DNA of 64,000 nt. It comes from a virus. The stretch is taken from the IMG/VR virus record IMGVR_UViG_3300042359_000621. One strand, given 5' to 3'. Of the stretch, positions 3,180 through 51,195 are shown one piece after another. How positions within the stretch are numbered: the stretch's first letter is position 1; every line of letters begins with the position of its first letter. The notes below the pieces were generated by a model. The model had not been told where the DNA came from and did no database searches. It was given only the letters and a program-made list of their open reading frames with translations. A program made the position numbers and the translations under genes.

Positions 3180-3455
3180 CTAATTTCTTTTCCACGCTTT
3201 CCTGCAATCTTCAGAAGTGAACTTATATAGCGTTCCGTTGTCACGAGATGCCTCCCCTCCTTTCTGACCTATTTCAGTTATATGGTCTTTGTTCTGAGAT
3301 GTTTTTGTTCCGCCTTCACTGCAATCCTCAGAAGTGAACTTATATAGCGTCCCGTTGTCACGAGATGCCTTCCCGCCTTTGCTAGAAATCTCTCGACGTT
3401 TTTCTGGACTCATAGCAGCAAATCCATATTTCTTTTTCTTATTTTCTGGTTCCAT
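3180..3455 (-). CDS. KGG-repeat stress-induced protein (general stress protein type)
   Basis: Two KGG motifs (SSKGGKASRDNGTLYKFTSEDC and GQKGGEASRDNGTLYKFTSEDC). The internal repeat is also visible at the nucleotide level. Confidence 0.7.
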   Translation of the reverse strand: MEPENKKKKYGFAAMSPEKRREISSKGGKASRDNGTLYKFTSEDCSEGGTKTSQNKDHITEIGQKGGEASRDNGTLYKFTSEDCRKAWKRN

Positions 3456-4128: not shown

Positions 4129-4134
4129 AAAATA

Positions 4135-4160
4135 ACCCCTGTAAATTAATTTACAGGGGT
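4135..4160. terminator. Bidirectional hairpin between convergent genes
   Basis: Perfect 13-bp palindrome ACCCCTGTAAATT/AATTTACAGGGGT between the ends of 3577..4128 and 4187..4399, with A/T-rich flanks. Confidence 0.55.
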
Positions 4161-4186
4161 TTAAAGTTTTAGCTATTAATCACTGG

Positions 4187-6212: not shown

Positions 6213-6581
6213 TTATTTTAGATTGGAAAAAGAAATAGCTAATGTATTTTTTATCCCACCATATAAATCATAAAATTCGACAATTATTGATTCATTTGGT
6301 TTCATCACTCGATAACTTCTATCAAAATATCCTGAACAATAGTCTGTACCGTAATCTTTTTTACAAATAACACGAAAAGGGATATCTGAAGTGATGTTTA
6401 ATTGTTGAGGTATATCTAAAGGATTTTTTATTATGTATTGTGTTTTTTTGTTTTTTGATATAAAAACTAGATAATTTCCTGAACGATTAAATATCGTTCT
6501 ATTTTCATTAGCTAAACATAAATTAGCAAAAGATATGCTCAATAATGTAACAGTCAATAGTGATAAAAACAGTTTTTTCAT
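6213..6581 (-). CDS. Secreted or periplasmic protein of unknown function
   Basis: N-terminal signal peptide (MKKLFLSLLTVTLLSISFANLCLA). Very AT-rich. Last gene of the 8861-to-6213 unit. Confidence 0.55.
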   Translation of the reverse strand: MKKLFLSLLTVTLLSISFANLCLANENRTIFNRSGNYLVFISKNKKTQYIIKNPLDIPQQLNITSDIPFRVICKKDYGTDYCSGYFDRSYRVMKPNESIIVEFYDLYGGIKNTLAISFSNLK

Positions 6582-6625
6582 TATTTTTTCTTGTTTTGTT
6601 TTATTGTAATTTTACCATTATTTTA

Positions 6626-8518
6626 CTACATATCAGGTAAAAAGTTTACACTTCTGAAACCATTAATTTCCTTGATTAGTTTTTGACCTAAACCAAAATT
6701 TTGCAATTCATCAAATATTAACTCAGTATTTTCAGCATTCAAACCGAATTGAGTTCTGAGTGATGACTTGCGGTAACAGTCACGGGCGGGTATAGGTTCA
6801 CCCTTAAATATTTCTTTGATAAAATTAAACACCGCTTGAGCTGATGGTGAAAGTGTTTTATCCGGCAATACTTTATTGGCTGTACCATTCCACGAAGGTT
6901 TATATTTGGCTTGTAATTCAGATTCAAGGCTTAAACGCTTTTGCTCGTCCCAACCTTTTGTAATATAAAAAGCAACCTTCACAGATAGATTACCAACAGA
7001 TTCAAGATGTTTCTTGACGTGATGTTCCCAATCACCTCGATTATTCCAACGCCTCCAAAGGTCTTTAGATTGACCTATATAGAGGGGATTTTGATAGCCG
7101 TCAACAAATACACAGTATACCCCTGCTTCGTGTTGTGGTAGCCACTGTAAACCACTGGGATAATCAATAGATTGCCATGTGTTGCAATCTAATGGGTTTA
7201 TTGATTGCAGTACACTAGGAACATCTTTTTCAATCTTAGGGAGTGAAACCGTCTTAACGTCTATGGGTTTGTTTAAAAAATTAGGATTCAATAAACCTTC
7301 GGGGGCATTGCCTTTTTTCCTATACTCAACATGATGTTTGTGGGTTGGATGTTCGGCGATTTGATGTTGATTTGATCCACAAACAACAACAGGATAGGGA
7401 GCATTTTGGATATATTGAAATTCATGGGTGTCGTGCTTCCATAGATTTTGAATTTCATTCCTAGCACTAGCGCCACAGAGGATTAAAAGGAAATTATTTC
7501 TAAACTTACCATCAATCCCTATGGCTTCAGTATTATGAGATTGCATAAAACCGATTAAACAAATATCAAATTTCCTGGCGTTAGAAAGTTTCCGAATCGC
7601 ATAAGTAAAGGTCTTAACTCTTTTTTCTTTGCTTTGTAATGGTTTGATAATATCTAATTGTGCTAACTCGGACATCGTGTCGTTAATCTCATCTAAACAA
7701 ATTATTATAGAATGCCCGTCTTTTTCTTTCCGGTTTTCAACTTCTTCAATCAACCAGCACAAAATCTGATAAATTGTTTCAACATCTGATTCAATTCTGG
7801 GAAATCCCATCTGTTCCCAAATGGGATTCTTAGAAGCATGAATATCCAAAACAATCACTTCGGCGGGTCTATGTTGAGTCAATTTACCAATCACGAAACC
7901 AGCGCCTAGAGATGTTTTTGCGCTCCCAGAATTTCCCCCGATCAATATTCCCGAAGATTCATCTGCTAATTTATCCCAATTATAAAAGTTTAAGGTATTA
8001 TCAGAGGGAATTTCACAGGGGACGAACGACAATCCATCAGAAGGAATATTATAATTATCTTGATTATATTCTGTAGAAATCTCTCGGTCTAAAACCATTA
8101 ATTGATTCCGGCGAAGATTCCTTTCATTATCTTCTGGTTGGTTTTGTGGCGATGGTGGTGATGGTGGCAATATTTGATTATGGTTTTTGATTGGCGCGAT
8201 CGCCTGTTGGCTTTCGTCTAAATATTTAATATCTCTAATTTTTTCTAATTCATATTCCATACCTAAACGTCGCAAAAATATAGCCTCGGTTTGTTCCTCT
8301 AATTTGGCTTGCAACTTAGATGATTTTTCTGCCTGACACCCCATCACCCAACCCGCAACAGATAACACCGCACCAGCAGATGTTCCAACTATCCCTAATT
8401 GTGGGTTTTTGTTGATTGCCAAAGGTGAGAGAATTGCCAGACTACAGCCAGCAATAGTTAGACCTATTGACCATGTTGACAGGTGAGGATTTTTTAAATG
8501 TTCAGGGGTGTTATTCAT
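6626..8518 (-). CDS. Membrane-anchored P-loop NTPase (FtsK/HerA/TraG-like core) fused to a C-terminal GIY-YIG nuclease domain
   Basis: Two N-terminal TM helices, a Walker-A-like GGNSGSAKTS and a Walker B IIICLDE. The GIY-YIG motifs are GVYCVF..PLYIGQS..RRW..E..N. Confidence 0.7.
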   Translation of the reverse strand: MNNTPEHLKNPHLSTWSIGLTIAGCSLAILSPLAINKNPQLGIVGTSAGAVLSVAGWVMGCQAEKSSKLQAKLEEQTEAIFLRRLGMEYELEKIRDIKYLDESQQAIAPIKNHNQILPPSPPSPQNQPEDNERNLRRNQLMVLDREISTEYNQDNYNIPSDGLSFVPCEIPSDNTLNFYNWDKLADESSGILIGGNSGSAKTSLGAGFVIGKLTQHRPAEVIVLDIHASKNPIWEQMGFPRIESDVETIYQILCWLIEEVENRKEKDGHSIIICLDEINDTMSELAQLDIIKPLQSKEKRVKTFTYAIRKLSNARKFDICLIGFMQSHNTEAIGIDGKFRNNFLLILCGASARNEIQNLWKHDTHEFQYIQNAPYPVVVCGSNQHQIAEHPTHKHHVEYRKKGNAPEGLLNPNFLNKPIDVKTVSLPKIEKDVPSVLQSINPLDCNTWQSIDYPSGLQWLPQHEAGVYCVFVDGYQNPLYIGQSKDLWRRWNNRGDWEHHVKKHLESVGNLSVKVAFYITKGWDEQKRLSLESELQAKYKPSWNGTANKVLPDKTLSPSAQAVFNFIKEIFKGEPIPARDCYRKSSLRTQFGLNAENTELIFDELQNFGLGQKLIKEINGFRSVNFLPDM

Positions 8519-8861
8519 TGTTTCCTTGAGGTAAAGAGAAAAATATCCAACATGAAACCGTTATTGTTAATAATAAAATCCACAATAATAATCTTAAGAC
8601 TATCCAAGATTGTCCTATTCCTAAAGCGTAAAATATGCCAATCAATAAAGATATTGCACCGAATATCAACTCATCAGAATCGGTTGATTGTTGATTCTCT
8701 GATAACAAATAAACTGCCACGCCACCAACAATTGAACCCAGATAAAGACAAATTGATAATACTCTAACCTCTGGATAAGTTAGTGCGAAATGTGACAGTA
8801 AAAAGGAACAAGATAAACCTGTTCCAAAGATTGAAAACTTTTTGACTTTCCATAGTTTCAT
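8511..8861 (-). CDS. Integral membrane protein
   Basis: 116 aa with several hydrophobic helices. Overlaps the start of 6626..8518 by 8 nt. Confidence 0.55.
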   Translation of the reverse strand: MKLWKVKKFSIFGTGLSCSFLLSHFALTYPEVRVLSICLYLGSIVGGVAVYLLSENQQSTDSDELIFGAISLLIGIFYALGIGQSWIVLRLLLWILLLTITVSCWIFFSLPQGNNE

Positions 8862-8896: not shown

Positions 8897-9412
8897 TTAC
8901 AGTTTCATTGAGTTTTCAATTTTGTCCAACTGCTTCATCATCGCAACAGCCCCCGCATTTTCGTTAGCATAGTTACCAACAGCTTGCATTAAATATACAG
9001 CTTGAGTGTCAAGTTGTTTCTGAGTATTCAACTTTTCAGTAAAGCGTTTTAGAGAACCTTCAGCCACACCTTTAACATATTGTTGGTCAGCTTCGTACCA
9101 TTCAGTCCGTGCTTTATCAACCTTCAATTGAGCTTCAACAATTATCTTTTTATTGGATGCTGCTTTAATCGCATTCTCGGCGATAATCTTAGCTCCCTTA
9201 GCCTCATTCTCGGAGGGGTTGACTCGGTCGGGAATGTTGAATTGTTGGTCAAAATCATCGGTTCCTGCATAGCTGCGTTCACGGGTATAGGGGGTGATAT
9301 CACCTTTTCCGGTAGGGGTCATCACTTTAGAGAAATTAGCACCCGTGCCAGCTTCTTTGATAATGTTTCCGGTTGAAAATCGACTGCGTAACCCGTCTAG
9401 TTTAGTTGCCAT
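8897..9412 (-). CDS. Hypothetical protein
   Basis: The track ORF was trimmed to the ATG at 9412 (MATKLDGL), just past the stop of 9402..9668. Confidence 0.45.
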   Translation of the reverse strand: MATKLDGLRSRFSTGNIIKEAGTGANFSKVMTPTGKGDITPYTRERSYAGTDDFDQQFNIPDRVNPSENEAKGAKIIAENAIKAASNKKIIVEAQLKVDKARTEWYEADQQYVKGVAEGSLKRFTEKLNTQKQLDTQAVYLMQAVGNYANENAGAVAMMKQLDKIENSMKL

Positions 9413-9668
9413 TGATTTTACTCCACTCATTAAGTAATTGTTTTTTACAACCTTCACCACCTTTAGCTTTTAGGCATTTTTCATACCCTGAAAGATTGGC
9501 TACAGCTACAAACTTCTGAAATTCCTCTGTTGGTTTATTTGTTAATCTGACAACTTCAGAAGTTATCAAGCCAACTAACAATAAACTCAACAGAGCCATT
9601 GACCAATTGAAAACGTGAAACCCTGTTATCTGGGGGGAGGTCTGGGTTTCAGATTGTTGTAAATACAT
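9402..9668 (-). CDS. Small single-pass membrane protein
   Basis: TM segment WSMALLSLLLVGLITSEVV. Confidence 0.45.
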   Translation of the reverse strand: MYLQQSETQTSPQITGFHVFNWSMALLSLLLVGLITSEVVRLTNKPTEEFQKFVAVANLSGYEKCLKAKGGEGCKKQLLNEWSKINGN

Positions 9669-10217
9669 TTAGTTTGTCTCCAATTTCTGACTGTTTGCAT
9701 CTAAATACCCCGCTATCGCACCACCAATAAACCCTGCCAGATGACCTTCCCAACTAATCCCTTGCGCAACCGATGGCAGCATTCCGCCGATTAAACCTTG
9801 AAATATTACCCAAGTGATTGTTGCACATACCAAATTAGGGAAATCCAACCGGAATATAGCTGACAAAAGGCAAAATCCAAAAAATCCATATATCACCCCG
9901 CTTGCTCCTATATGATTTGAACCAGGTTGACCAAAGAACCAAACACCAAAGCCTTCAATTATTGAAATCAGCCAAAAGTTGTAATTAAATTTTCCAGGGG
10001 CTTTGAAAATTGTCAAAGTTGCCAATGGCAAATATCCGACTGTGTTCCCTATCAAGTGTTGGGGATCTCCGTGTAGGAATGGCGAGGTTATAATTCCCAA
10101 CATTCCTATACCTTCCACTCCTGGTCTGATTCCAAAATAATCAAATCCGGGGAAAAACATCTCTAAAGCCCACATTATTCCCAGATAGGTAGCTGCACAC
10201 TTAAAATCTTTCAACAT
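9669..10217 (-). CDS. Rhomboid family intramembrane serine protease
   Basis: FLHGDPQHLIGN (the H..H..N motif), catalytic GASGVIYG (GxSG) and a distal WEGHLAGFIGGAIAG (catalytic His plus GxxxG). Polytopic. Confidence 0.8.
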   Translation of the reverse strand: MLKDFKCAATYLGIMWALEMFFPGFDYFGIRPGVEGIGMLGIITSPFLHGDPQHLIGNTVGYLPLATLTIFKAPGKFNYNFWLISIIEGFGVWFFGQPGSNHIGASGVIYGFFGFCLLSAIFRLDFPNLVCATITWVIFQGLIGGMLPSVAQGISWEGHLAGFIGGAIAGYLDANSQKLETN

Positions 10218-12764: not shown

Positions 12765-12887
12765 AAATGATTACAAATCGTTTGGTTTCTGTTTGTTAAG
12801 CGAAATGAAACGCTTGACTAACAACAACAATAAACCCCCTACAGAGAGGGGGTCAATGTCATTTCGTCACTGGATGTCATTCTGTCA

Positions 12888-14115: not shown

Positions 14116-14408
14116 TACTTAACAAGTGTGGGACTAAAATCAACCTCACAATCCAAGTCCCAAAATAGATTGGCAGAGGTTCTATATAGGCAAAAAACAC
14201 GGTCACTCTCAAGATCAATTAAGTAACATTCTTGCCTTTTGTCTTCCTGGTTCCAATGTTCGCCCGTTGATTGGCAGTCATTGGGGTCAATTAATTGACT
14301 TTCTAATTTGCGACGATCCTCTATTCTTAACATCCGAGAATCAAACCCTCGTTTTTCAACAGATGACAGCCAATTGTATAATCGTCGAGACCCAGTAACT
14401 TTAATCAT
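14115..14408 (-). CDS. Hypothetical protein
   Basis: 97-aa ORF with a 1-nt overlap to the next gene. Confidence 0.45.
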   Translation of the reverse strand: MIKVTGSRRLYNWLSSVEKRGFDSRMLRIEDRRKLESQLIDPNDCQSTGEHWNQEDKRQECYLIDLESDRVFCLYRTSANLFWDLDCEVDFSPTLVK

Positions 14409-14561
14409 TTAATTACCCTCCGAACTAGGATAGTTAAGCCAATACCAAAACGTGATTAATTGATAGTTGGCTGGGTTTCTGTGGCGGATAATATTACGCC
14501 ATAGTCTGAAGTTAGTCTTGTAGTCATGTGACCCGTCGCGCCATAAGTTAATTAGATTCAT
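14409..14561 (-). CDS. Small hypothetical protein (50 aa, not in the track)
   Basis: ATG at 14561. The stop directly abuts the ATG at 14408. Confidence 0.3.
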   Translation of the reverse strand: MNLINLWRDGSHDYKTNFRLWRNIIRHRNPANYQLITFWYWLNYPSSEGN

Positions 14562-14569
14562 GCTGTCCT

Positions 14570-14830
14570 TTACTTTCTAGGGTTTAGCGATCGCCTATAA
14601 ATTGCCATCGCTCTAATGTGGTTTGGATCATTGATATTTTCATGACACTGAATCCAATTTCTTATCAGCGTCAAATTGTACAAATATCCCGCCCGATTCC
14701 CGCCAGGGCGTTTGTAATAATGAATTTTGTCAATCCATTTTTTACGATAATGTTTGACGGAATCGGCACTCCTCAGTCCCAAGAGTTGGGCGGCTTCCGT
14801 CTTGGAGCCAAATTCGTAGGCTGCAATCAT
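14570..14830 (-). CDS. Excisionase-type/MerR-like HTH DNA-binding protein
   Basis: TEAAQLLGLRSADSVKHYRKKW..YLYNLTLIRNWI matches the HTH_17/Xis-like pattern. Confidence 0.45.
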   Translation of the reverse strand: MIAAYEFGSKTEAAQLLGLRSADSVKHYRKKWIDKIHYYKRPGGNRAGYLYNLTLIRNWIQCHENINDPNHIRAMAIYRRSLNPRK

Positions 14831-19666: not shown

Positions 19667-19999
19667 TCATCGCTTCTGACTAAAGGACTTGATTGTCACG
19701 GTAGGGAACAGGTCTCGGATATCAGCACCGAGGGTCTTTAAAACAAAATCCAATCTTTCACGACTAACAGATGCAACTTTTCCCTGTTCCCATTTGAGGA
19801 TTGTGTCAAAGGAAACCGTTGGCTCCGTAAGGGTTGCAAGTTTTTTTTGCGATATGTTTTTGGCATTTCTTACATCTTGCAATCTAGTCCCAACGTCCTT
19901 ATCCCAAGCAATTTGGACAATACAGTTATATGGAATCATAATCTCCTCTTCTTGATCTTTCGGTATAGTATTGACATTACTACCTTTTTGTTCTAACAT
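19667..19999 (-). CDS. XRE-family HTH transcriptional regulator (candidate phage repressor)
   Basis: NISQKKLATLTEPTVSFDTILKWEQGK is a Cro/C1-type HTH. The track ORF was trimmed to the ATG at 19999. Confidence 0.6.
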   Translation of the reverse strand: MLEQKGSNVNTIPKDQEEEIMIPYNCIVQIAWDKDVGTRLQDVRNAKNISQKKLATLTEPTVSFDTILKWEQGKVASVSRERLDFVLKTLGADIRDLFPTVTIKSFSQKR

Positions 20000-20381
20000 A
20001 GCAATATTGTAGGAATCTGGCAAGACCAAATCACCAGATTCCTGCACCCCCTGAAACAACAAGCCTTGGATCGGCTTTGTAAATCGTAAGGGGAAAAACC
20101 CGAAAAGGAAAATGCCTATGGGATGAAACTGAACGGGCAGATTGTAGAACACCTAAATACCAGAGGGAAGATTCAAGCATTCCCTTTGGTTTCCTAAATA
20201 ATGAAATGAAAAAAATAGCGATAGCGATTGCGATTGCGATTTTTGCAGTCATAAATTGTTTATTAATTTTCTGTGATGATTCGCAGAAAATCGGGGAAAA
20301 TTCCCCGTCGGAAGAGCAACCCAAACGGGGAGATGGTCGAAGAAGCTGATCATCATTTTCCCTAAAAATTTTGAGGAAAAT

Positions 20382-20660: not shown

Positions 20661-21832
20661 AACCATCTATTCTAGCCGCCTTTGCAGAAGCCGTCCCCTA
20701 TATCCCCGGACTCAGACAGCAAACAGGGAGCGTAGTAGCCACGATTCTTATGATGCAACTTGAGTATCGTTTCGCAAAGTATCCAGACGGGTTTTATAAG
20801 TTTTTAGAACCCCCTCAAAACGGACATCAGGACTACAGGCTTGGGGATAGTTGGGTTGAGGAACTCGCTTTTTCTAAAGAAGAATTTAGGACTGGGTTTG
20901 ACAAGATTGGAGTCCGTTACAACTCCAAAACCCAGTATGACGAAGCAAAATCTAGCGGATCGGAATTTGGTTGTAATTACTACTGTTCTTACGTTGACCG
21001 GAGGTCGGGGTTAACTTTCTACTTTCGGAATCACAGCAAGGTAGATGAGCTAATTTCCGATATCGAACCCAGGCAAAAATCAGTGGGTTTTCGCCCACGG
21101 AAAACTAGACCCCAAATGGTAGATCCCAATCTACAGGAAATCGGGAATCCCAATTTACTGAATATGGTAAATCCCAATTTACCATCATCGGGAATCCCAA
21201 TTTACCAGAGTGGTGAATCCCAATTTCCTATTCCTTATATAGATATTTCAGAAAAGACTTCAGAAAAGACTCCAGAAAATACCCCCCTTACCCCCCAAGG
21301 GGAATCGGAGGAGGGGGGGATTCAGAACGAAGCCGTTTTGATTTCAAACGAAGACCAGGGGAAAGAGCTTACCGAGGACTCTGCTACACAGCAAAGTCAA
21401 AAAGAGAATCACCGACCTGAACAAAATCTTAATCCGGTGATCAGACATTCCGCCGCCGTCGAGTCCGATCCTCGATTTCTACCAACGGACGCAACAGCAG
21501 ACAATATGAAAACTTGGAACGCAATTGTGGCGACCGGAGCCATGAGAGGTGAGCGATCGCCCGACCCTGAGTTTTTGGAATATTACAGGGGGCTATTAAG
21601 CAAATGCACTCATTACAGGGGCAAAGACTGTAATTCAAACCATGCCAAATCTTCCCTTGCTCAGAAATGGAAATCCGAGCCACTAAAAATCCTTGCCGAT
21701 GCCGAGTCGTGGTTGAAATCAAAAGCCAAGTTTAGCGGTGGCAAATCAACCCAGACCCGCAATATCAGCGAACTTTCTAGGGATGAACGCCTCGCCATCC
21801 TGAGAGCCAAACGCGAACAAAAAGGAGCCTAA
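20639..21832 (+). CDS. Putative replication initiator (lambda O-like organisation, with iterons inside the gene)
   Basis: Position upstream of DnaB, with five phased iterons inside the coding sequence. Confidence 0.5.
   Translation: MGSGGCMKPSILAAFAEAVPYIPGLRQQTGSVVATILMMQLEYRFAKYPDGFYKFLEPPQNGHQDYRLGDSWVEELAFSKEEFRTGFDKIGVRYNSKTQYDEAKSSGSEFGCNYYCSYVDRRSGLTFYFRNHSKVDELISDIEPRQKSVGFRPRKTRPQMVDPNLQEIGNPNLLNMVNPNLPSSGIPIYQSGESQFPIPYIDISEKTSEKTPENTPLTPQGESEEGGIQNEAVLISNEDQGKELTEDSATQQSQKENHRPEQNLNPVIRHSAAVESDPRFLPTDATADNMKTWNAIVATGAMRGERSPDPEFLEYYRGLLSKCTHYRGKDCNSNHAKSSLAQKWKSEPLKILADAESWLKSKAKFSGGKSTQTRNISELSRDERLAILRAKREQKGA
21122..21227 (+). repeat. Five iterons (G)AATCCCAATTTAC spaced 22-24 bp apart; candidate replication origin
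   Basis: Copies start at 21122, 21145, 21169, 21192 and 21214. They are followed by an A/T-rich stretch with CAGAAAAGACT twice. Confidence 0.6.
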
Positions 21833-21834
21833 CC

Positions 21835-22422
21835 ATGACCGAGCTTAACGATGAAATCTTTGATCAGGGAATTGAAAACCTGAAAGAAAATTTTTCCGAC
21901 GCGATTTTCACCGAACTCAAATATGAAATTTGGTTCGACAAACTCTCTCAGGAGTTATCAGCTGAAGAATTTGAGACTGCAATCCGTGAGGCAATTTTCA
22001 ACCTTAGCAAGTGTCCCACGGGAAAAGAGCTTGTAAGCCTCGTTAAAGAATCCGAACGTGAGTTAGTAAGTAACTGTTGGTCAAGATGCCTAGAATCGCT
22101 TGCTAAACGCCTCCCGTTGAATAATTTAGACGATGCGAGTCAATATGCAATCGTTCAACTCGGAGGGATGTCTCACCTTGGGTCGATTGAAAGTACCCAA
22201 CTCAACTACCTGAGCAACGATTTCAAGACTCATTGGCAAGCCTACCGAAAAGCCCCGCGAGAATTTGAGCGTCCCACGCAGGTCATCCCCCGTGAGCAAA
22301 TCGAGTTCAAGCCCAATGGACTCAAGCCACAGATTTCAGAGGAACAGAAGTTAAAAAATCAGGAATTTCTAAATAACCTGATCGCCACAAAAATGAATAA
22401 AAACTTAAATGGAGCGAAATAA
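21835..22422 (+). CDS. Hypothetical replication-module protein (a helicase-loader role is possible)
   Basis: 195-aa ORF between the initiator and DnaB, joined to DnaB by a TAATG overlap. Confidence 0.4.
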   Translation: MTELNDEIFDQGIENLKENFSDAIFTELKYEIWFDKLSQELSAEEFETAIREAIFNLSKCPTGKELVSLVKESERELVSNCWSRCLESLAKRLPLNNLDDASQYAIVQLGGMSHLGSIESTQLNYLSNDFKTHWQAYRKAPREFERPTQVIPREQIEFKPNGLKPQISEEQKLKNQEFLNNLIATKMNKNLNGAK

Positions 22423-23735
22423 TGGAAACAATAATCATGCAAAACGTTGAGGCAGAACAAGCCGTTTTGGGAGCGATTCTCTTAGACCCCGAAGCTATGG
22501 GGCGAGTTGCGGAAACGCTAACTGCTAAATCTTTTTCCCTGCGATCGCATCAAACAATCTACAAAGCAGCTTTAGCATTACATTCCGAGGGAATAACCAC
22601 GGATTTAATGACCGTCACTACCTGGTTATCCGATCAGAAATTACTTGAGAAAGCCGGGGGACAATTAGGATTAACCCAATTATTAGACCGCACAGTTTCA
22701 GCAGTTAACATTGATCAATACGGGCTGTTAATTGCCGATAAGCAAACTCGAAGAAACCTAATTGAATCTGCCCATAAAATTATTGAATTGGCAGAAGATA
22801 CCAGTCAACCTTTAGAGACAATTCTCCAAAAGTCAGAGGAACAAATTGCTAATATTTCCCAATCAAAATCACAACAGGATTTAGTTTCGATTGGTGAAAC
22901 TTTAATTGATACCTTTCAAGAAATTGAAGATCGGAGCGAAAGCAAGATTCCCCCCGGTGTCCCCTCTGGATTTTATGACCTCGATGCTATGACTGGAGGA
23001 TTCCAACACACCGACTTAATTATTGTGGCAGGAAGACCTGCAATGGGCAAATCGAGTTTGGCTTTAAATTTTGGATATAACATTGCCAAAAAAGGGTTAC
23101 CCGTCGCGGTCTTCAGTTTAGAAATGTCCAAAGGTCAATTAGTCCAAAGACTATTATCGAGCGAAACCAAAATTGAAAGTACCCGCATTCGTTCGGGAAA
23201 CATTCAGCAAGAGGAATGGGAACCTTTGACAACCGCAATTAGTTCCTTAGCAGAATTACCGATTTTTATTGACGACACCTCGAATCCAACAGTTAACGAA
23301 ATCAAGAAAAAAGCCCAAAAATTGCAAGCCGAAAACGATGGAAAATTAGGATTAATCCTAATAGATTATCTGCAATTAATGGACGGAGGAAGTGATAATC
23401 GGGTGCAAGAATTGTCAAGAATTACACGGGGATTAAAGGGAATGGCAAAAGATTTAAACGTTCCTGTAGTTGCCTTATCTCAGTTGAGTCGTGCCGTTGA
23501 ACAGCGCACTAATAAACGCCCAATGTTATCGGATTTGAGGGAGTCGGGAAGTATTGAGATGGATGCGGATTTAGTAATGATGATCTATCGAGATGATTAT
23601 TATAATCCTAACACTTCGGACGAGGGAATTGCAGAGTTAATTTTAGCCAAACATCGCAACGGCCCCACCGGAACGGTCAAGTTATTATTTGATTCTCAAT
23701 TTACCCAATTTAAAAATTTAGCGAGGTCTAACTAG
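22422..23735 (+). CDS. dnaB: Replicative DNA helicase DnaB
   Basis: N-terminal VEAEQAVLGAILLDP, Walker A GRPAMGKSS, IDYLQLM and a SQLSR..E motif. Confidence 0.9.
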   Translation: METIIMQNVEAEQAVLGAILLDPEAMGRVAETLTAKSFSLRSHQTIYKAALALHSEGITTDLMTVTTWLSDQKLLEKAGGQLGLTQLLDRTVSAVNIDQYGLLIADKQTRRNLIESAHKIIELAEDTSQPLETILQKSEEQIANISQSKSQQDLVSIGETLIDTFQEIEDRSESKIPPGVPSGFYDLDAMTGGFQHTDLIIVAGRPAMGKSSLALNFGYNIAKKGLPVAVFSLEMSKGQLVQRLLSSETKIESTRIRSGNIQQEEWEPLTTAISSLAELPIFIDDTSNPTVNEIKKKAQKLQAENDGKLGLILIDYLQLMDGGSDNRVQELSRITRGLKGMAKDLNVPVVALSQLSRAVEQRTNKRPMLSDLRESGSIEMDADLVMMIYRDDYYNPNTSDEGIAELILAKHRNGPTGTVKLLFDSQFTQFKNLARSN

Positions 23736-29142: not shown

Positions 29143-29180
29143 ATTAGACAAGATTAGACAAAATTAGACAAGATTAGACT
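29143..29180 (+). repeat. Four ATTAGAC(A/T) direct repeats with an exact 10-bp period; candidate integrase arm-type sites
   Basis: Copies at 29143, 29153, 29163 and 29173, 19 nt upstream of the int GTG start. Confidence 0.6.
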
Positions 29181-29198
29181 GATTATTGATCATCAATT

Positions 29199-30335
29199 GT
29201 GACTCAGAAGAAAGCACCCAAGGGAAGCGTACAGGTCAAAACTACCATCAGTTCGGCGGGGGTGGGGTGGCTCCGGCTGGTTTGGAGTCACCAGGGCAAA
29301 AGATATTTTTTGAGCTTAGGATTGGAGGATAATCCCCTAAATCAGATGGTGGCTCAAAGACTCGCGCTACAGATTCAGGGTGACTGCGCCACGGGAAACT
29401 TCGATAGCTCCTTGATTAAATACAAACCGCAATCAGAAATAGAATTGAAACCCGTCACGGTTTCAGTTGTCGGGCTAATTGAACGGTATTTAATTTTCAA
29501 ACAGCAACAAATTGAATCAGAAACGCTATACAAATACAATCATTTCTTGCCTAGAATCCGAGAATATTTTGGTAACAATAGTTTAACTGAAAAATCCGCT
29601 TTTGGCTTTCGTGATTGGCTGCTACAACACAACGAACCCGCCACAGTTAGGGAAAGAATTGTATTCTTAAATGCTGTTTATGAGTGGGGGATTAAGAAGC
29701 AATTAGTTGAGGTCAATCACTGGACTGAAGTATCGGTTAAGGTTCCCCCAAAAAGAAGATTAAAACCATTCTCAATTGAAGAAATAAAACGGATTTTAGA
29801 AGGGTTTGCAACGGATCAATATTATTCCCATTATCTCCCTTATGTTGAGTTTTTACTGGGTACAGGTTGCCGCCCGGGTGAAGCAAACGGGCTACAGTGG
29901 AAACATATATCAGAAGATTGTGGAGAGGTTTTAATTAGCTGTAAATTAACGGTATCCGGTGAGCGGAAATCGACTAAAACTAATCGCGATCGCTTAATTC
30001 CACTTCCCCCTCGCCTTCAAAATATTCTCAAAGCAATCCGTCCGATTGACCCCGACCCGGAGGCTCCGGTTTTTGTCTCCTTGACTGGATTGCCAATTGA
30101 TTCCCACAACTTCAGGAATCGGGCTTGGAAACAGGTTTTAGCTAAGGTTGGCGTGGAATATAGAAAGCCCGGAAACTGCCGTCATACTCTGATTTCCCAC
30201 GGGTTATCGCAAGGGAAAAGCCCTGCTGAAATGGCAGAACTCGCAGGGAACAGAATTGAGACTATTTACAATAATTATGCTGGGAGCGTGATCCACCGAC
30301 CATCATTGCCTGAATTATTCGTCGATGACGAATAA
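29199..30335 (+). CDS. int: Tyrosine-type site-specific integrase
   Basis: GCRPGEANGLQW (catalytic R), CRHTLISH (HxxR) and a distal IYNNY (Tyr). Adjacent to the tRNA fragment. Confidence 0.85.
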   Translation: MTQKKAPKGSVQVKTTISSAGVGWLRLVWSHQGKRYFLSLGLEDNPLNQMVAQRLALQIQGDCATGNFDSSLIKYKPQSEIELKPVTVSVVGLIERYLIFKQQQIESETLYKYNHFLPRIREYFGNNSLTEKSAFGFRDWLLQHNEPATVRERIVFLNAVYEWGIKKQLVEVNHWTEVSVKVPPKRRLKPFSIEEIKRILEGFATDQYYSHYLPYVEFLLGTGCRPGEANGLQWKHISEDCGEVLISCKLTVSGERKSTKTNRDRLIPLPPRLQNILKAIRPIDPDPEAPVFVSLTGLPIDSHNFRNRAWKQVLAKVGVEYRKPGNCRHTLISHGLSQGKSPAEMAELAGNRIETIYNNYAGSVIHRPSLPELFVDDE

Positions 30336-37089: not shown

Positions 37090-39117
37090 TTATGCTCCTA
37101 TTAATCCGTGAGTTGTCAAATCATCAATCAACGCTTTTACTCTTTCAGCTAATTGTGGAAGAGTTACCGTTGAAGTTGCAAAAGTTGTGCGAGTAGCGGT
37201 TCCCGTAGGGGCAGCCCATCCCGTTCTTCGGGCGGAAACAACTTGATTAGTCCCAACAACAAAAGACGTTGCTTTTGCCGACCCATTAACATCTAATTGT
37301 TGCGATGGGCTAATAGTACCAATTCCTACATTATCATTATCTAAAATAGTGAAGGGTATTGATTTAACAGCATTATTATTATAAGAGTAAATATGAAAAC
37401 CATTTTGCAAGCTCCCCCCCGCATTTGTTGATTTCATATTATAGAGAACGTATGAGGTGCTAAGTCCTGCTTCTGTTTTTCCAAGGTTACTGATTTCGAT
37501 AGCAGCTGTATACTCCAGACTTCGTAACCTTAAAGCACCCGTTACAATACCACCAGCCAAAGGAAGGTATGTGTCGGGAAGTCTGGCAGCACTCAAGGTT
37601 CCGGTTGAAATATTAGAAGCATTTAAACTGGTTAGTCCGGAGCCATTCCCGTTCAACGAACCAGCAAAAATCGCTCCCGTAATCCCCAAACTAGCTGCAC
37701 GAATCGCGCCTGTAGTGGTAGAAGTTGATTCTGCGGTACTATCAGTTGACACAACACCTCTAAGGTAAGTGTTGGTAATATTTGAATCACCAAGCGTAAC
37801 CGTGTTTGAGCCATTCCCTGTGGCGTTAAAACCGAAAACATTTTCATTGGTTGCATTTTGGGTTCCTTTTGTCGATGCACCTATAAAACAAGAGTTGCTT
37901 GATGCCGTGAGACCCGTTACACCATCGGCAATAAAACGCCCTGCACCAACTCCAAAACCTACCAAACTACTCCCTGTTGCATTGCTGAAAAGTGCACCAA
38001 CTCCAACGGCAGTTGAATTATTCCCTGTAGTGTTATTTTGTAAACTCCCAACACCAACGGCAGTCAAGTTGCTCCCACTGGTATTGACACGGAGCGAATC
38101 CAAACCAACGGCAGTTAAACCATTCCCTGTGGTATTAGCTAAAAGCGAATTAACACCAACGGCAGTCAAATTAGCCCCTGTGGTATTAGCTAAAAGCGAA
38201 TTAACACCAAATGCGGAGCAGTTAGTACCTGTGGTATTGGCCTGGAGCGAATTAACACCAAATGCGGAGCAGTTAGTACCTGTGGTATTGGCCTGGAGCG
38301 AACTAGAACCAACAACCGTATTTGAACTTACCCCCCCTGCTCCCCTCCCAACAGGAATTAGATTATAGGAATTTGCGCTAACAGTATTTGCAAAAATCGC
38401 TCCAGTAATCCCTAAACTGGCTGCACGAATCGCGCCTGTAGTGGTACTGGTAGAAGCTGTTGCACTGGTTGAAACCAAGTCACCCGTTACTGTGCCTCCT
38501 GGCAAGGGTAGATAATTATTGTTATCAATCGAATAATTACCATCACCCGTTTTCTTTAAGAATCCCGCAGTATCAGCTAATGCTTGAATGGCAATTAATT
38601 CATTTCCGATGCTGTTAGTTGAAACGGCTGTTATTTGTCCTTTCCCGTTGACAGTAACGACAGGAATTGAACCAGCACCGCCAAACGCACCAACATTACT
38701 ATTAACTGTTGCCAGAGTTATTGCGCTTGAAACATTAGCTGAACCATCAAAACTAACAGAATAAGTAGCATCCCCCGTCGTTGAAATTGTCCGGGCGTTT
38801 GTTAGTTTTAACGCCTCCCCCGCCGTTGCCGAGCTTGATATTTCAACATAAACAGAACCTGACCATCGGTAGGTTTTGTTAGTATCTTCGGTGACATAAA
38901 TTTTGCCAGCATCACCCGCAACCGGAAACGCTGCAAGGTTAGCAAAATTCAAGACATCATCAACATAGGATGGCAAAACCGATGCTGAAATTGTGCCAGA
39001 CGCGGCGTTAACAGCCGTTAAGATTGTGTTGCTAGAAGTTAATGATTTTGTGAAATTTGCCACCGTTGGATCGGTTTCAGCTGTAATCACATTCCTAATT
39101 AATTGTCCAACGCCCAT
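37090..39117 (-). CDS. Tail fibre protein with 17-aa NTTGxNxTAxGVxSLxA repeats
   Basis: About seven tandem 17-aa repeats, a duplicated STSTTTGAIRAASLGITGAIFA segment, and a conserved fibre-type C-terminus (LPQLAERVKALIDDLTTHGLIGA). Confidence 0.75.
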   Translation of the reverse strand: MGVGQLIRNVITAETDPTVANFTKSLTSSNTILTAVNAASGTISASVLPSYVDDVLNFANLAAFPVAGDAGKIYVTEDTNKTYRWSGSVYVEISSSATAGEALKLTNARTISTTGDATYSVSFDGSANVSSAITLATVNSNVGAFGGAGSIPVVTVNGKGQITAVSTNSIGNELIAIQALADTAGFLKKTGDGNYSIDNNNYLPLPGGTVTGDLVSTSATASTSTTTGAIRAASLGITGAIFANTVSANSYNLIPVGRGAGGVSSNTVVGSSSLQANTTGTNCSAFGVNSLQANTTGTNCSAFGVNSLLANTTGANLTAVGVNSLLANTTGNGLTAVGLDSLRVNTSGSNLTAVGVGSLQNNTTGNNSTAVGVGALFSNATGSSLVGFGVGAGRFIADGVTGLTASSNSCFIGASTKGTQNATNENVFGFNATGNGSNTVTLGDSNITNTYLRGVVSTDSTAESTSTTTGAIRAASLGITGAIFAGSLNGNGSGLTSLNASNISTGTLSAARLPDTYLPLAGGIVTGALRLRSLEYTAAIEISNLGKTEAGLSTSYVLYNMKSTNAGGSLQNGFHIYSYNNNAVKSIPFTILDNDNVGIGTISPSQQLDVNGSAKATSFVVGTNQVVSARRTGWAAPTGTATRTTFATSTVTLPQLAERVKALIDDLTTHGLIGA
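38201..38302 (-). repeat. Two perfect 51-nt tandem copies inside the fibre repeat array
   Basis: 38201-38251 equals 38252-38302. Diverged 51-nt units extend upstream to about 37945. Confidence 0.8.
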
Positions 39118-45470: not shown

Positions 45471-47075
45471 CTATTTTTTCATCCAATCAGCCAGTCCTTC
45501 TCGGTAAGTTTTAGCAAACGCATAGCATACCGCATCGGCTAAGTTAGGCGATCGCCCGATAATACTCTTAATATCATCTTTTTTGGTAATCATTATTGTT
45601 TTCCCAGACTCCCACCACCGGAATGCACAGAGTTCTTCTTTTAATTGATCATCGGGAGGTAAACAGATCGGGATTTGATTCTTGGGGTCTAATAAGTCTC
45701 GCAGATTCCAGTACCAATAAGTCCGCATATTAGCAAAAGTCAAGAGTCCGCTTTTGTCTTTCAAATACTCGCCGTTTCCATCCTTCGCGGCTTCACTTCC
45801 TTTCAAGGGAATAACGTGCATTTTCATCCCTCGACAGGTATCGTGAACCGCAGCACCCACCCCAATTACGTCAATTTGTACCTTTACCCCAATGTTCGCC
45901 ATACAGGAGGCAATCTGCTGTGCGACAATATTGCTGTCTGGGGTCTGGCTTCCATCAAATTCCCTGAGTCTATCAAGCCAGTTGTCCCATCGCAGAGCCA
46001 ACACTGTCTTATCTATCCCACCCCTCGCCACATCCACACCAATATGGGACATTTTTAAGGTTTGAGGATAGTCAACCCATCGTTGCATCGCCAAAGTGAC
46101 CCAATCCCCAGGAATAACTTGATAGGGGTCTGATTCTGGCTCGATGGTCATGTCGCCATAGAGAAGCTGCGATCGCAAAGGTTCAGGGAGAGATTGCAGC
46201 ACCCCTCTATATCCTGAATCTTTCAGGAAAGGATTGTCGTCTAGTGTCGCTCGAATAAATGTGCGGGATCGGGGTTCTAAGTCTTCGTCTCCAATTCTGA
46301 TCTTTTTAGGCTTGGGATAATAGAGTTTTCCCTCAACCTTTACAGGATCAAGAGAAGAAACCTCGTGGATTTCCTTGCCAATCGTGAGATAAAAGCTATC
46401 AACATCTACTTCTTGGTCTTTCCCGTTTACCCCCACAAACCAGCGCAACTCACCTGGTTCGGCAAGGTGTCTTCCCGTCTGAGATTCATATTTTGGATCA
46501 AGCCAGGGAGCCAGATAACCAATAATCCATCGCCCACTTACTTGACTGGGAGGATTAAACGTAAAGATTACTCGGCATTTTTGATGGGGATCGGGACTTC
46601 TGCACCAACCCGTTAAAAAGAGGAATTGCTCAAGGGAGAATTCTGTCACCTCGTCTACTGCCTTGAGATCGTGTTCAATCCCTCGCCAGTTTTCAATATC
46701 ACTTTCATGTTGCGCCGCGCCAAACTTTAGAGTTCTCCCTCCGGGTATTTTCCTCCACAGCTTTTCGTTACTATTGTAAGTAGCCCCACTCCCCCGTAAT
46801 AATAGCCGTGATTTTTCAATAATATCTAGCAGCCGAGGATACTCTCGCCGGAAAACAATTGATTTCCGGTGTTGTGTCACCGCCATAATCTGAATGATTG
46901 CGGTTTTCCCCCCTCCAGCACTCCCCCCAAACCCAATAATGTCAGCATGGGAAGACAAAGCCATTCTTTGTGGTTCACTTTTGGGTTCCCAAGGGTTCCA
47001 GTTTGCAATACTCTGTCCAGTAAATCCTAATTTGTCTAATACAGAAGGGTAGCCACTATGTCTTTGTTTTGTCAC
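45471..47075 (-). CDS. terL: Terminase large subunit
   Basis: Walker A GFGGSAGGGKT, Walker B LKAVDEV, and the nuclease motif IGVDVARGGIDKTV. Confidence 0.85.
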   Translation of the reverse strand: MTKQRHSGYPSVLDKLGFTGQSIANWNPWEPKSEPQRMALSSHADIIGFGGSAGGGKTAIIQIMAVTQHRKSIVFRREYPRLLDIIEKSRLLLRGSGATYNSNEKLWRKIPGGRTLKFGAAQHESDIENWRGIEHDLKAVDEVTEFSLEQFLFLTGWCRSPDPHQKCRVIFTFNPPSQVSGRWIIGYLAPWLDPKYESQTGRHLAEPGELRWFVGVNGKDQEVDVDSFYLTIGKEIHEVSSLDPVKVEGKLYYPKPKKIRIGDEDLEPRSRTFIRATLDDNPFLKDSGYRGVLQSLPEPLRSQLLYGDMTIEPESDPYQVIPGDWVTLAMQRWVDYPQTLKMSHIGVDVARGGIDKTVLALRWDNWLDRLREFDGSQTPDSNIVAQQIASCMANIGVKVQIDVIGVGAAVHDTCRGMKMHVIPLKGSEAAKDGNGEYLKDKSGLLTFANMRTYWYWNLRDLLDPKNQIPICLPPDDQLKEELCAFRWWESGKTIMITKKDDIKSIIGRSPNLADAVCYAFAKTYREGLADWMKK

Positions 47076-49206: not shown

Positions 49207-51195
49207 ATGACCGCCCAATCATCCGAGACAACAAAAAAAGAAACCACCACAGAGATTGTGAATCGTTATAGAGAAGACTCTCGTGTCATGATGCAAGCGT
49301 TAGCGGAGAGTGCCGACGCAAGTTCGATGCGAAATCCTCTCCCTGTAACGGGAAGAATCCAGCCTTTCTCTCAACAGCAAGTAGAAAACTGTTTAGCAGA
49401 CGCGATCTTAAAACGAATAGCGTGGAGCCTCCCATCTTCGTCAACTCAAAAGATGTGGCAGTTATCCTTGGGAGATGATTTTTCTAGTAAGACGGGTTCT
49501 AAATTAGTCCGAGATTATTATGCCTATCACGAAAGATTGAAAACCATATCACAATTTAGAAAAGCATTGCAGTTCTCTCGCTCTCATGGTGGGACAGTTA
49601 TTATTCTCAAGATTAACGATGGAAGACATTATTCCGAACCTGTTGATGAAGGCAAGATTAAATCAATCTCTGGGTTAATCGTTCGTCACCGATGGCAAGT
49701 TGCTCCTTCGGTGAGAACGGCTGCTAGTATATTTGACCTTGATGACATTGAACATTATGAAATCCTAACAATTGACCAACAAATAAAACAAAAATTACTA
49801 TTTAACGGAACAAATTCCAAGCAGGATGATCGCCTGATTCATCGGTCAAGAATCCTCCGGTTTAATGGGGCATTAATGCCTGATGATTGGATGATTTCCT
49901 ATAACAATGGATGGGGATTGAGTGTCTTTGACGAGGTTTGGAAATATTATAAAAACTATACAAATGGACTCAATGCAGTAGGCGAATTAATTAAAACCCA
50001 ATCAGTTCTACAGCATTCTTTTGAAGGACTGCGGGAACTGATGATGGCATCTGATGAAGAAAGTATCGCAGCTATTAAGCAAACCATGAAATCAATCCGA
50101 CTAATGTTTGATCTATATGGCATGGTTCTCCACGACTCCCGTGAACAATTCAACTGGAATGCCCGCCCCGTCGTCGGGATGGATTCACTCGTGCAAGTAC
50201 AGAAGGATGGGGTAACAGGAGCCTCTGGGATGCCTCACACGATAGTTTGGGGAGAAAGCCCTGGGGGTTTGGGGCGTGATGGCAAGGAGACCCAAATCAA
50301 CTATGCTAACTCGGTGGCAGAGTACCAAGGAGAGAGCTTAGATCCTAGCGCAGCTATTCTTGATCGTTATATCTTCTTGGCTAAAGACGGCCCCACAAAA
50401 GGCAAAATCCCCGACAACTACCAGAGGCAGTACCCTTCTATCTTGAGGATGACCATCGAGGATCTCCGCTCTGGACGCTCATCTGATATTCAGGCATTGG
50501 CTTCAGGTATTCAAGCCGGATTCATCACGACAGATGAAGCTCGGACAGTGCCTTCTAACTCCGGTTGGTGGCCAGAGCTTAACCTTGATCAAAAAGCATG
50601 GGAAGAAGCCAGGAAAAAAGCAGAAGAACAAGCAAACTTCCTTGGTGGTTTTGATATGGGAGCATTAGGAGGCGAGGAAGCTGCCCCACCCACTGAAGAA
50701 CCCGTCGAAGAAGAATCTATAACTCAAATGGACAGTGCTGTTTACACCCCAATAAAGCGGGTTCTTAATTGGCACGGGCTATCAATTGGGGTCACTCACG
50801 ACAAAGGGGATCTTCGCTATAACAAAACGATGAAGGTAGGGTATGGGCATATTAGACGCAGCTATGGACACGCGGAGGACGCAAAAGCAATCGACGTTTA
50901 TATCAAAAATCCAAACTCACCTAGTCTCTGGAAGGTTCGGCAACTCAACACAACAACAGGGGAGATTGACGAAACAAAGTATTTCTTGGGTTTTGATTCC
51001 CCCAAAGAAGTGCGCGATTGCTATTACTATCATGCCGGATTAGATCGTTTTGGAGGAGTGGAGAAGTGCGATCCTACGGAATTAAACCAATACCGCCAAG
51101 ATGCAGAAGAATTGGAGGGAGTTAATGAAGTTTATCAAAATAAGATATTAACAGATGTAGCAAATAGAATCAATCAACAAACTCAATTAGATTAA
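49207..51195 (+). CDS. Portal protein with a C-terminal extension domain
   Basis: Size and position at the start of the head operon, divergent from the TerL operon. The HRSRILRFNG region is typical of DUF1073-type portals. Confidence 0.6.
   Translation: MTAQSSETTKKETTTEIVNRYREDSRVMMQALAESADASSMRNPLPVTGRIQPFSQQQVENCLADAILKRIAWSLPSSSTQKMWQLSLGDDFSSKTGSKLVRDYYAYHERLKTISQFRKALQFSRSHGGTVIILKINDGRHYSEPVDEGKIKSISGLIVRHRWQVAPSVRTAASIFDLDDIEHYEILTIDQQIKQKLLFNGTNSKQDDRLIHRSRILRFNGALMPDDWMISYNNGWGLSVFDEVWKYYKNYTNGLNAVGELIKTQSVLQHSFEGLRELMMASDEESIAAIKQTMKSIRLMFDLYGMVLHDSREQFNWNARPVVGMDSLVQVQKDGVTGASGMPHTIVWGESPGGLGRDGKETQINYANSVAEYQGESLDPSAAILDRYIFLAKDGPTKGKIPDNYQRQYPSILRMTIEDLRSGRSSDIQALASGIQAGFITTDEARTVPSNSGWWPELNLDQKAWEEARKKAEEQANFLGGFDMGALGGEEAAPPTEEPVEEESITQMDSAVYTPIKRVLNWHGLSIGVTHDKGDLRYNKTMKVGYGHIRRSYGHAEDAKAIDVYIKNPNSPSLWKVRQLNTTTGEIDETKYFLGFDSPKEVRDCYYYHAGLDRFGGVEKCDPTELNQYRQDAEELEGVNEVYQNKILTDVANRINQQTQLD

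Follow-up and report, generated by a model that had tools for sequence, protein, structure and literature searches.

The stretch of DNA described here, called the window, comprises 64,000 nucleotides of IMG/VR virus record IMGVR_UViG_3300042359_000621 (GC content 40.6%) and belongs to a temperate cyanophage or prophage of Planktothrix. On its minus strand lies a gene for a protein of 630 amino acids (aa) in which a transmembrane (TM) hairpin, a charged helix, a linker rich in Pro, Gln and Asn (P/Q/N-rich), an FtsK/HerA-type P-loop NTPase core, a UvrC-type GIY-YIG nuclease domain and a winged helix follow one another. A first reading made from the letters alone (hereafter the original prediction) had placed this gene at the centre of a three-gene unit, and the coordinates that it gave for the three minus-strand open reading frames (ORFs), 8511-8861, 6626-8518 and 6213-6581, were correct. 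Its authors knew of no described system with this combination of parts, and neither do we: PADLOC, Pfam, NCBIfam and literature searches were all blank in this respect. The domain combination has no dedicated Pfam or NCBIfam family, the literature searches returned no account of the family or of the motor-nuclease fusion, and existing annotations of family members read 'hypothetical', 'ATP-binding' or 'DUF87'.

Domains of the 630-aa protein

The protein and its parts lie as follows, with the basis of each assignment in brackets.

6626..8518 (-), the 630-aa multidomain protein (ORF, homologs, alignment, motif positions)
8336..8476 (-), membrane hairpin, residues 15-61 (hydropathy; strongly conserved in full-length homologs)
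7994..8335 (-), charged helical segment (62-100), then P/Q/N-rich low-complexity linker, together residues 62-175 (composition)
7226..8164 (-), exchangeable cassette, residues ~119-431 (blastn, per-segment identities)
7268..7993 (-), FtsK/HerA-type P-loop NTPase core, residues 176-417 (AlphaFold2 (AF2), Foldseek, profiles, Pfam)
7910-7939 (-), Walker A motif GGNSGSAKTS, residues 194-203
7688-7708 (-), Walker B motif IIICLDE, residues 271-277
~7331-7351 (-), HPTHxHH motif, residues 390-396
6884..7141 (-), UvrC-type GIY-YIG nuclease domain, residues ~460-545 (Pfam, NCBIfam, hhalign, alignment)
6629..6856 (-), C-terminal winged-helix domain, residues ~555-630 (AF2, Foldseek, hhalign)

A search of 5.8 billion proteins returned 77 homologs, from Planktothrix and related filamentous cyanobacteria, and the catalytic motifs are invariant among the 13 full-length proteins that were aligned. 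With the C-terminal half as the sole query merely 3 near-identical fragments were returned, and a tblastn search of annotated phage genomes found no relative of the protein. All of the motifs quoted in the original prediction were located, namely, beside the two Walker motifs, GVYCVF at residues 466-471, LYIGQSKDLWRRW at 479-491 and YKPSWN at 539-544. The two N-terminal TM helices that it proposed correspond to hydrophobic stretches at 15-36 and 41-61, joined by a short loop of 4-5 residues (NKNPQ); this loop and the charged segment after the second helix suggest that both ends of the hairpin would be cytoplasmic. The Pro-rich linker is likewise borne out by composition. The full-length homologs agree well over residues 62-105 but vary in the linker.

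Membership of the core in the FtsK/HerA superfamily is well supported, as had been proposed. An AF2 model of residues 165-440, built from a 12-sequence alignment, has a mean predicted local distance difference test score (pLDDT) of 86.9 and a predicted TM-score (pTM) of 0.85, and its best Foldseek match in the PDB is TcpA of pCW3 (6o1x, E=9e-7, TMq 0.49), followed by the FtsK motor (6t8g, E=3e-6, TMq 0.51) and, lower down, by RecA/DnaB/Rho, EssC/EccC and the FtsK/HerA packaging ATPase B204 of STIV2. The FtsK matches cover the core at a TMt of ~0.37, with much of FtsK unmatched. A sequence profile searched against PDB sequences also puts TcpA (E=0.011) and FtsK (E=0.019) at the top, weakly. The Pfam model FtsK_SpoIIIE scores below its cut-off on the window protein (E=0.023, 14.6-16.5 bits versus 24), is the commonest Pfam match in the family (9/12 members) and reaches E=3.4e-6 in distant relatives, in which DUF87 reaches E=7.5e-8. 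The nearest viral models in BFVD are phage proteins named 'DNA translocase FtsK', A32-like packaging ATPases and a Nodularia cyanophage protein. Membership of FtsK proper is not supported, because the core of ~240 aa lacks the alpha domain. G198, K201, T202 and D276 are invariant over all three of the cassette types described below, and an Arg-Lys pair after Walker B is conserved throughout the family. A separate observation is that the sequence HPTH(G/K)H(H/Y) just after the core is near-invariant over the type-A family (145 distant representatives); it may bind metal or mediate interactions.

Pfam GIY-YIG (PF01541) matches the window protein at E=0.004 with 17.8-19.6 bits against a gathering score of 22.6, and matches 11/11 family members, always slightly below the cut-off; positions 8-86 of the NCBIfam UvrC model align to residues 460-544 (E=0.0074). 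With a UvrC N-domain, hhalign aligned the GVY, YIG and Arg elements and paired LESELQAKYKPSWN with LEANLIKKYRPKYN; with the I-TevI catalytic domain it aligned the GIY-YIG hairpin alone. The residues G466, Y468, Y480, G482, R490, E532 and N544 are invariant in the 13 full-length homologs, so that the GIY-YIG assignment of the original prediction stands, with its catalytic residues kept. The domain calls, weak on a single sequence, are strengthened by the homologs and, for the core, by structure.

What had been called a helical tail is indeed present, but AF2 and Foldseek identify it as a winged helix. The model consists of three helices and a beta-hairpin (pLDDT ~90), and its Foldseek matches are MarR/ArsR, Zalpha and the ScpA C-WHD (TMt 0.6-0.73 over ~70 residues, with weak E-values). 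A Foldseek search with a model of the GIY-YIG domain plus tail recovered the winged helix alone and no GIY-YIG match, and a profile of the same region against PDB sequences gave no meaningful match. The phage tail is related to the 'type 1' tail of the plasmid-borne NTPases described below (hhalign 93.7%, 42% identity), which indicates that the nuclease is inserted between the motor and the motor's native winged helix.

The motor itself is an exchangeable part. The DNA of the window and of the related locus L045 is 82-89% identical on either side of a 940-bp stretch, up to position 8164 and from 7225 onwards, and within that stretch blastn detects no similarity; this part of the window is instead 71-72% identical at the nucleotide level to Planktothrix plasmid genes, and the matching gene, found on nearly all Planktothrix plasmids, is ~78% identical at the amino acid level. 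Full-length homologs are 65-90% identical to the window protein over the N-terminal 105 residues and 58-97% over the C-terminal 190 residues, and most are only ~20% identical over the central region. Three cassette types can be told apart, ~20% identical to one another and homologous by hhalign (~96%), and both Walker motifs are retained in each. The window and 20 loci have type A, L001 and L045 have type B, and four loci have type C. The nucleotide matches indicate that the window cassette was captured from plasmids. The module of GIY-YIG domain and tail (64-92% identity) shows the same degree of conservation as the remainder of the protein.

Neighbouring genes and phage context

Synteny was followed in 25 related phage-like contigs from IMG/VR, JGI and Logan. 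The neighbours of the 630-aa gene are these.

8511..8861 (-), Y, a 116-aa polytopic membrane protein with 3-4 hydrophobic helices (hydropathy)
8897..9460 (-), X, a soluble helical protein of 187 aa bearing a KGDITP motif, a positional partner encoded before Y; its start codon is uncertain (synteny)
9402..10217 (-), an 88-aa single-TM protein and a 182-aa rhomboid protease (Pfam, synteny, tblastn)
6213..6581 (-), a 122-aa exported protein with a signal-like N-terminus (hydropathy)

The three-gene unit of the original prediction has to be redrawn. Its upstream member Y is a conserved, translationally coupled partner of the 630-aa protein: the 8-nt overlap of the Y stop with the start of the 630-aa gene (ATGAATAA) is real, and the arrangement recurs in more than 20 loci. 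The downstream 122-aa gene had been correctly described as a very AT-rich gene for a signal-peptide protein (GC 24.9%), but it occurs in about half of the related phage contigs and is accessory, with no fixed place in the module. It is upstream that the conserved partners are found: the genes for the 116-aa, 187-aa and 88-aa proteins, the rhomboid and further proteins are syntenic in 25/25 phage-like contigs. Loci of both the phage and the plasmid type share the order X (~160-190 aa) - Y (75-121 aa) - NTPase, even where core identity falls to 27%. Comparison of sequence profiles makes it probable that Y is homologous between the two (hhalign 88%); for X the value is 14%, and a protein of similar size with the motif KGDISP precedes Y on the plasmids. 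The 88-aa and rhomboid genes are present in all phage-type loci and absent from plasmid-type loci, with tblastn matches in the phage type alone. The rhomboid (9669-10217, minus strand; Pfam Rhomboid E=4e-17, weak rhombosortase similarity in NCBIfam) has visible GASG and HxxGxxxG motifs, and the TM hairpin of the 630-aa protein is a candidate substrate.

The 630-aa gene is part of a long operon on the minus strand, where terminator-like hairpins lie near 12,850 and at 4,134-4,161. The rhomboid protease, a RuvC-like resolvase and several small membrane proteins are encoded in this operon too; a Dam methylase gene is close by on the opposite strand. A promoter and terminator scan delimited no separate transcription unit for the 116-aa, 630-aa and 122-aa genes. 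Elsewhere in the window, scans with Pfam and PHROGs identified a C5 methylase, a thymidylate kinase and virion proteins in addition to the following landmarks.

19667-20152, cI-like helix-turn-helix protein
22422-23735, DnaB
29199-30335, tyrosine integrase
45471-47075, TerL
49207-51195 (+), portal (Phage_portal_3)

A role as packaging ATPase was ruled out, since the phage has its own TerL and portal; the membrane anchor of the 630-aa protein and the plasmid-borne nature of its nearest relatives are further points against it. Partners from a type IV secretion system (T4SS), namely a VirB4-type ATPase, a relaxase or mating-pair genes, were also lacking among the window ORFs scanned, some small ORFs being outside the scan. 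The scanned ORFs give no sign that the NTPase belongs to a conjugation or packaging machinery, an outcome that would have counted against the original prediction.

Several other features of the window were recorded. The portal gene product carries a C-terminal InPase domain (PF18823, E=5e-26), an unusual fusion. At 21123-21226, within a 397-aa ORF preceding DnaB, a 23-bp unit (ATCCCAATTTACCAAAATCGGGA) occurs five times; these units are iteron-like and may mark the phage replication origin. Four copies of ATTAGACAAG with 10-bp spacing (29143-29179) lie ~20 bp upstream of the tyrosine integrase gene and could serve in regulation or as arm-type sites. Two 67-nt direct repeats, 91% identical and 117 nt apart (3197-3263 and 3314-3380), occupy the gap between a 281-aa gene and the Dam methylase gene. 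Finally, ~3 copies of a 51-nt tandem repeat (38049-38312) lie inside a 675-aa virion protein (ORF 37090-39117, minus strand) which matches head-decoration and tail-spike PHROGs.

Plasmid relatives and their repeat arrays

The relatives of the type-A core (73-82% aa identity) are proteins of ~480 aa which have their own two-TM anchor, charged helix and Pro-rich linker, and which end in a small C-terminal domain without a nuclease. They are carried by 13 PLSDB plasmids of Planktothrix, Annamia and Pseudanabaena, all typed as non-mobilizable and with no T4SS partners or relaxase annotated. The plasmid backbone runs X - Y - NTPase - D - small ORFs - CyRepA1/DUF3987 replicase, with ParA/CopG encoded separately. 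D, a Cys-pair protein, was considered as a homolog of the 122-aa protein found downstream in the phage, and this was ruled out (hhalign 0.2%); the two downstream genes are unrelated. One plasmid departs from this plan: plasmid2 of AP017993.1 (locus L004, 8653-10779) has a truncated NTPase gene followed by a separate gene for a 242-aa protein with a T5orf172-like domain (GIY-YIG superfamily), a remnant of the LESELQ helix and a tail of the window type, 55% identical to the window protein over residues 524-630. This locus looks like a recombinant of plasmid-type and phage-type genes.

A profile search over 1.84 billion cluster representatives extended the family to 696 relatives at E<=1e-3 (87 at E<=1e-30). 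Most are of 400-500 aa, with an N-terminal hydrophobic anchor and a C-terminal extension of 50-150 aa, and other long-tailed members carry linkers and small helical domains, no nucleases. In 73 relatives scanned with Pfam, P-loop models alone were matched (DUF87 in 11, FtsK_SpoIIIE in 2, AAA_10 in 1 and Zot in 1). All named members are cyanobacterial and mostly filamentous (Halotia, Nostoc, Calothrix, Symploca, Lyngbya, Okeania).

The surroundings of the gene on phages and plasmids bring to mind other membrane roles, such as the anchoring of replicating or recombining DNA, an export function like that of EssC/EccC, or the release of the nuclease under control of the rhomboid. An active-looking rhomboid is always close by in the phage loci, although nothing ties it to the 630-aa protein; EssC/EccC are among the structural matches to the core, but are outscored by TcpA and FtsK. 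A RuvC-like resolvase and a Dam methylase share the region in the phage, and the module abuts the replicase on the plasmids, which nevertheless encode ParA and Rep functions separately. A winged helix of the DNA-binding type next to a DNase domain also argues for a DNA substrate, and on balance we consider a role of this kind very unlikely.

A further feature of the plasmid-type loci is an array of 4-7 direct repeats of 7-8 bp, spaced by 9-11 bp, which starts at the NTPase stop codon and is followed after 20-40 bp by 1-4 inverted copies. The repeat motif differs with the type of tail.

Tail ...ETIWLE[AS]PTPS, motif CGTCGTAA, seven loci
Tail ...EINGSFTFTP, motif TGTCATG / TGACATG, L048 and L049
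Tail ...VQVIFIPS, motif CTAGGAT x3, L029 and L031
Tail ...VTPPK, motif (G)ACACCT, L035 (x7) and L034 (x3)
Pseudanabaena 12.5-kb plasmid, motif TGTCTTG x4, L005
Array positions: L006 10072-10195; L030 9067-9179; L035 3352-3448; L049 3579-3691; L046-L051 directly after the NTPase stop

When at least 4 exact 7-mers were required within 130 bp, a strict test, 11/21 plasmid-type loci had an array at the stop codon and 0/5 of the phage type did; Markov-shuffled 64-kb sequences hold 0-1 such arrays anywhere. The array is absent from this position in 6/6 nuclease-associated loci, that is, in the 5 phage-type loci and in plasmid AP017993. In the window there is no array beside the 630-aa gene and no cluster of any plasmid motif across the 64 kb; the region 14116-14826, considered as a possible non-coding array gap, is filled by small ORFs and has no array. 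By analogy, the plasmid arrays are candidate cis sites of a clt- or centromere-like kind.

That the nuclease module occupies the array position of its nuclease-free relatives, and that the array is gone wherever the module occurs, AP017993 included, would also be expected if the GIY-YIG domain and winged helix together formed a selfish, homing-type module which targeted the 3' array and became fused in frame, with little or no benefit to the phage. Homing endonucleases of this kind classically pair a catalytic GIY-YIG domain with a DNA-binding domain at the C-terminus. The distribution of the module is however far from sporadic, since it is found in 25/25 related phage loci and is conserved like the remainder of the protein, and the nuclease did not bring the winged helix with it, because the tail is homologous to the native tail of nuclease-free translocases. 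Fusion in frame in all 25 of these loci, with a separately encoded relative on plasmid AP017993 alone, rules out a free-standing GIY-YIG homing endonuclease, and speaks against the fused selfish module as well, which we judge quite unlikely.

Possible roles in DNA transfer and inter-element conflict

Each part of the 630-aa protein is of a known kind, as FtsK/HerA motors, GIY-YIG domains, winged helix-turn-helix (wHTH) domains and motor-nuclease defence proteins have all been described, and it is the family and the fusion that are undescribed in our literature searches. Members of the family are most plausibly translocases of the FtsK type, anchored in the membrane and encoded by cyanobacterial mobile elements, which read an element-specific site by means of the winged helix. 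The nearest parallel in layout is the TraB/clt/Spd system of Streptomyces, in which an FtsK-like motor uses a C-terminal winged helix to read element-specific 8-bp clt repeats at the 3' end of its own gene and acts with small, membrane-associated and translationally coupled Spd proteins. Both systems combine a membrane-associated FtsK-like motor bearing a C-terminal winged helix with small membrane-protein genes joined by overlapping stop and start codons, both occur in multicellular filamentous hosts, and in both related genes are found on plasmids and phages; the plasmid relatives, but not the window copy, also resemble TraB in that the motor gene has an element-specific array of direct 7-8-bp repeats at its 3' end. 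The likeness claimed here is one of layout and proposed mode of action rather than of sequence family. The core of ~240 aa is without an FtsK alpha domain; no array adjoins the window copy, which has in addition a GIY-YIG domain that TraB lacks.

Other motors are more distant in one respect or another. In TcpA, too, an FtsK-type NTPase comes after two N-terminal TM helices, and TcpA is the best structural and profile match of the core; TM-scores are nevertheless ~0.5 and identity is 13-16%, and TcpA has neither a nuclease nor a C-terminal wHTH. Type IV coupling proteins differ in that T4SS partners and a relaxase are lacking from the scanned window ORFs and that the plasmids are typed as non-mobilizable. 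FtsK/SpoIIIE share the order of anchor, long low-complexity linker, RecA-like core and C-terminal sequence-reading winged helix (FtsK gamma), and the convergent orientation of the plasmid arrays recalls the polar KOPS, which converge on dif; they differ in having four TM helices rather than two and an alpha domain, whereas the gene described here belongs to mobile elements and has a nuclease inserted. With the UvrC N-domain and I-TevI the nuclease shares the catalytic motif set and, in a low-confidence model, the order of secondary structure, the nearest profiles being UvrC-type, and with homing endonucleases such as I-TevI it shares the sequence of nuclease then C-terminal DNA-binding domain. 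Unlike those GIY-YIG enzymes, it is neither free-standing nor sporadic, and has a motor on one side and the native winged helix of that motor on the other.

The parallel with TraB suggests that the 630-aa protein could handle the phage's own DNA across a septum or membrane, for segregation or for spread along the filament, with the GIY-YIG domain acting as a processing nickase or linearising enzyme and with X, Y, the 88-aa protein and the rhomboid forming a Spd-like membrane apparatus. Such a role would suit an ancestry that shares the two TM helices, FtsK-like motor, wHTH, 3' repeat array and coupled membrane partners of the TraB/clt/spd systems. It would also suit the core-gene status of the phage copy, the constant presence of several membrane-protein genes in fixed order around it in all phage loci, and the restriction of the family to cyanobacteria, mostly filamentous ones. 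There is a precedent in that homologues of SpdB2 occur on actinophages, where they have been proposed to spread phage DNA. TraB, however, is reported to move unprocessed double-stranded DNA and to need no nuclease to do so, and the phage gene has no array adjoining it, nor does any plasmid motif cluster in the 64-kb window. The hypervariable motor cassette is not obviously accounted for either. We therefore regard handling of the phage's own DNA as possible, though rather doubtful.

A second precedent is provided by the HerA/FtsK capture systems (e.g. DndH), in which a frame of endonuclease and wHTH has repeatedly captured divergent FtsK/HerA motors, including motors from mobile elements (PMC10853773). 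The three ~20%-identical cassettes found here in a single nuclease/wHTH frame, one of them plasmid-derived, present a similar picture. Those systems differ, however, in having nucleases of the restriction endonuclease type in large, soluble, multi-domain or multi-gene assemblies without a membrane anchor or GIY-YIG domain, and in residing in cellular defence loci rather than among syntenic phage core genes. An eLife 2020 paper on conflict systems was rejected as a description of the present protein, as it deals with a different architecture and mentions inactive FtsK effector domains alone.

Of the explanations considered, we tentatively prefer one in which the 630-aa protein is a plasmid-type translocase that has been turned into a membrane-tethered translocase-nuclease, cutting non-self DNA in conflicts between mobile elements; we put its probability at roughly 0.38. 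The protein would sit in the cytoplasmic membrane together with its 116-aa partner, with all catalytic domains in the cytoplasm, and would oligomerise as a ring ATPase. The winged helix would engage double-stranded DNA, which the GIY-YIG domain would cut while the motor pumps, and the targets may be co-resident plasmids, related elements with a cognate repeat array, or incoming phage DNA. We favour a role in conflict because motor-nuclease fusions of this kind are, to our knowledge, otherwise restriction or defence enzymes, because the capture of cassettes resembles that in DndH-type systems, and because the loci without an array are exactly those with a nuclease among the nuclease-associated loci compared, which is what self-avoidance would demand were the tail to guide the nuclease to such arrays. 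The original prediction had proposed superinfection exclusion or defence, by degradation of DNA entering at the membrane. With the HerA/FtsK capture precedent this is still plausible, but the ancestry of the family points to element transfer or segregation instead.

That ancestry is the first of several points which weigh against the conflict reading. No nuclease or effector domain was found by Pfam in the wider family. Since none was found elsewhere in the family, the GIY-YIG insertion is specific to this Planktothrix phage lineage; and because the family as a whole is without nuclease or effector domains, its ancestral role was probably in the transfer or segregation of element DNA rather than in defence, a role that the phage copy may have retained. 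The 630-aa gene is moreover a syntenic core gene in 25/25 related phage loci, unlike variable defence morons, and the PADLOC 2.0 defence models gave zero matches at E<=0.1 for the 116-aa, 630-aa and 122-aa proteins. Within the protein, Ala replaces the last Gly of Walker A in the window copy (GSGKT in relatives), and the GIY-YIG part of the AF2 model has the expected beta-beta-alpha-alpha-beta-alpha order at low confidence (pLDDT 50-70). The covariation of tail and array may reflect the linkage of adjacent parts alone. Strict self-avoidance is also hard to reconcile with the phage-type locus L001, in which four intergenic copies of TGTCATG/CATGACA (6839-6919) lie 3 kb upstream of the translocase-nuclease gene, TGTCATG being the motif that accompanies the plasmid tail closest to that of the phage. 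This cluster has no equivalent in the window or the other phage loci, and GTCATG is apparently depleted in phage loci, where CATG-containing words may be depleted for unrelated reasons.

The transfer and conflict readings could also be combined. On this broader proposal, plasmids and temperate phages of filamentous cyanobacteria would share a T4SS-independent translocation of double-stranded DNA between cells or filaments, of the TraB/clt/Spd kind, and the phage version would be armed with a nuclease against replicons that carry a cognate array. We think this unlikely as a whole; if true, the arming with a nuclease would explain the capture of plasmid motor cassettes through break-induced recombination.

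The more interesting by-product of this analysis is the TraB/clt-like module on cyanobacterial plasmids. Filamentous cyanobacteria, Planktothrix among them, carry many plasmids typed as non-mobilizable, whose upkeep and spread need explanation, and the plasmid backbone module offers a candidate, open to testing, for a system that transfers or segregates DNA in a second lineage of multicellular bacteria. Its repeat arrays and matching tails also offer parts for cyanobacterial genetic tools. In the phage variant, insertion of a nuclease and swapping of motor cassettes may have rebuilt the same machine into a membrane-located weapon against competing DNA. A role in conflict, if true, would make it a new type of phage-encoded exclusion system, and a role in transfer would bear on gene flow, including that of toxin gene clusters, in bloom-forming cyanobacteria.

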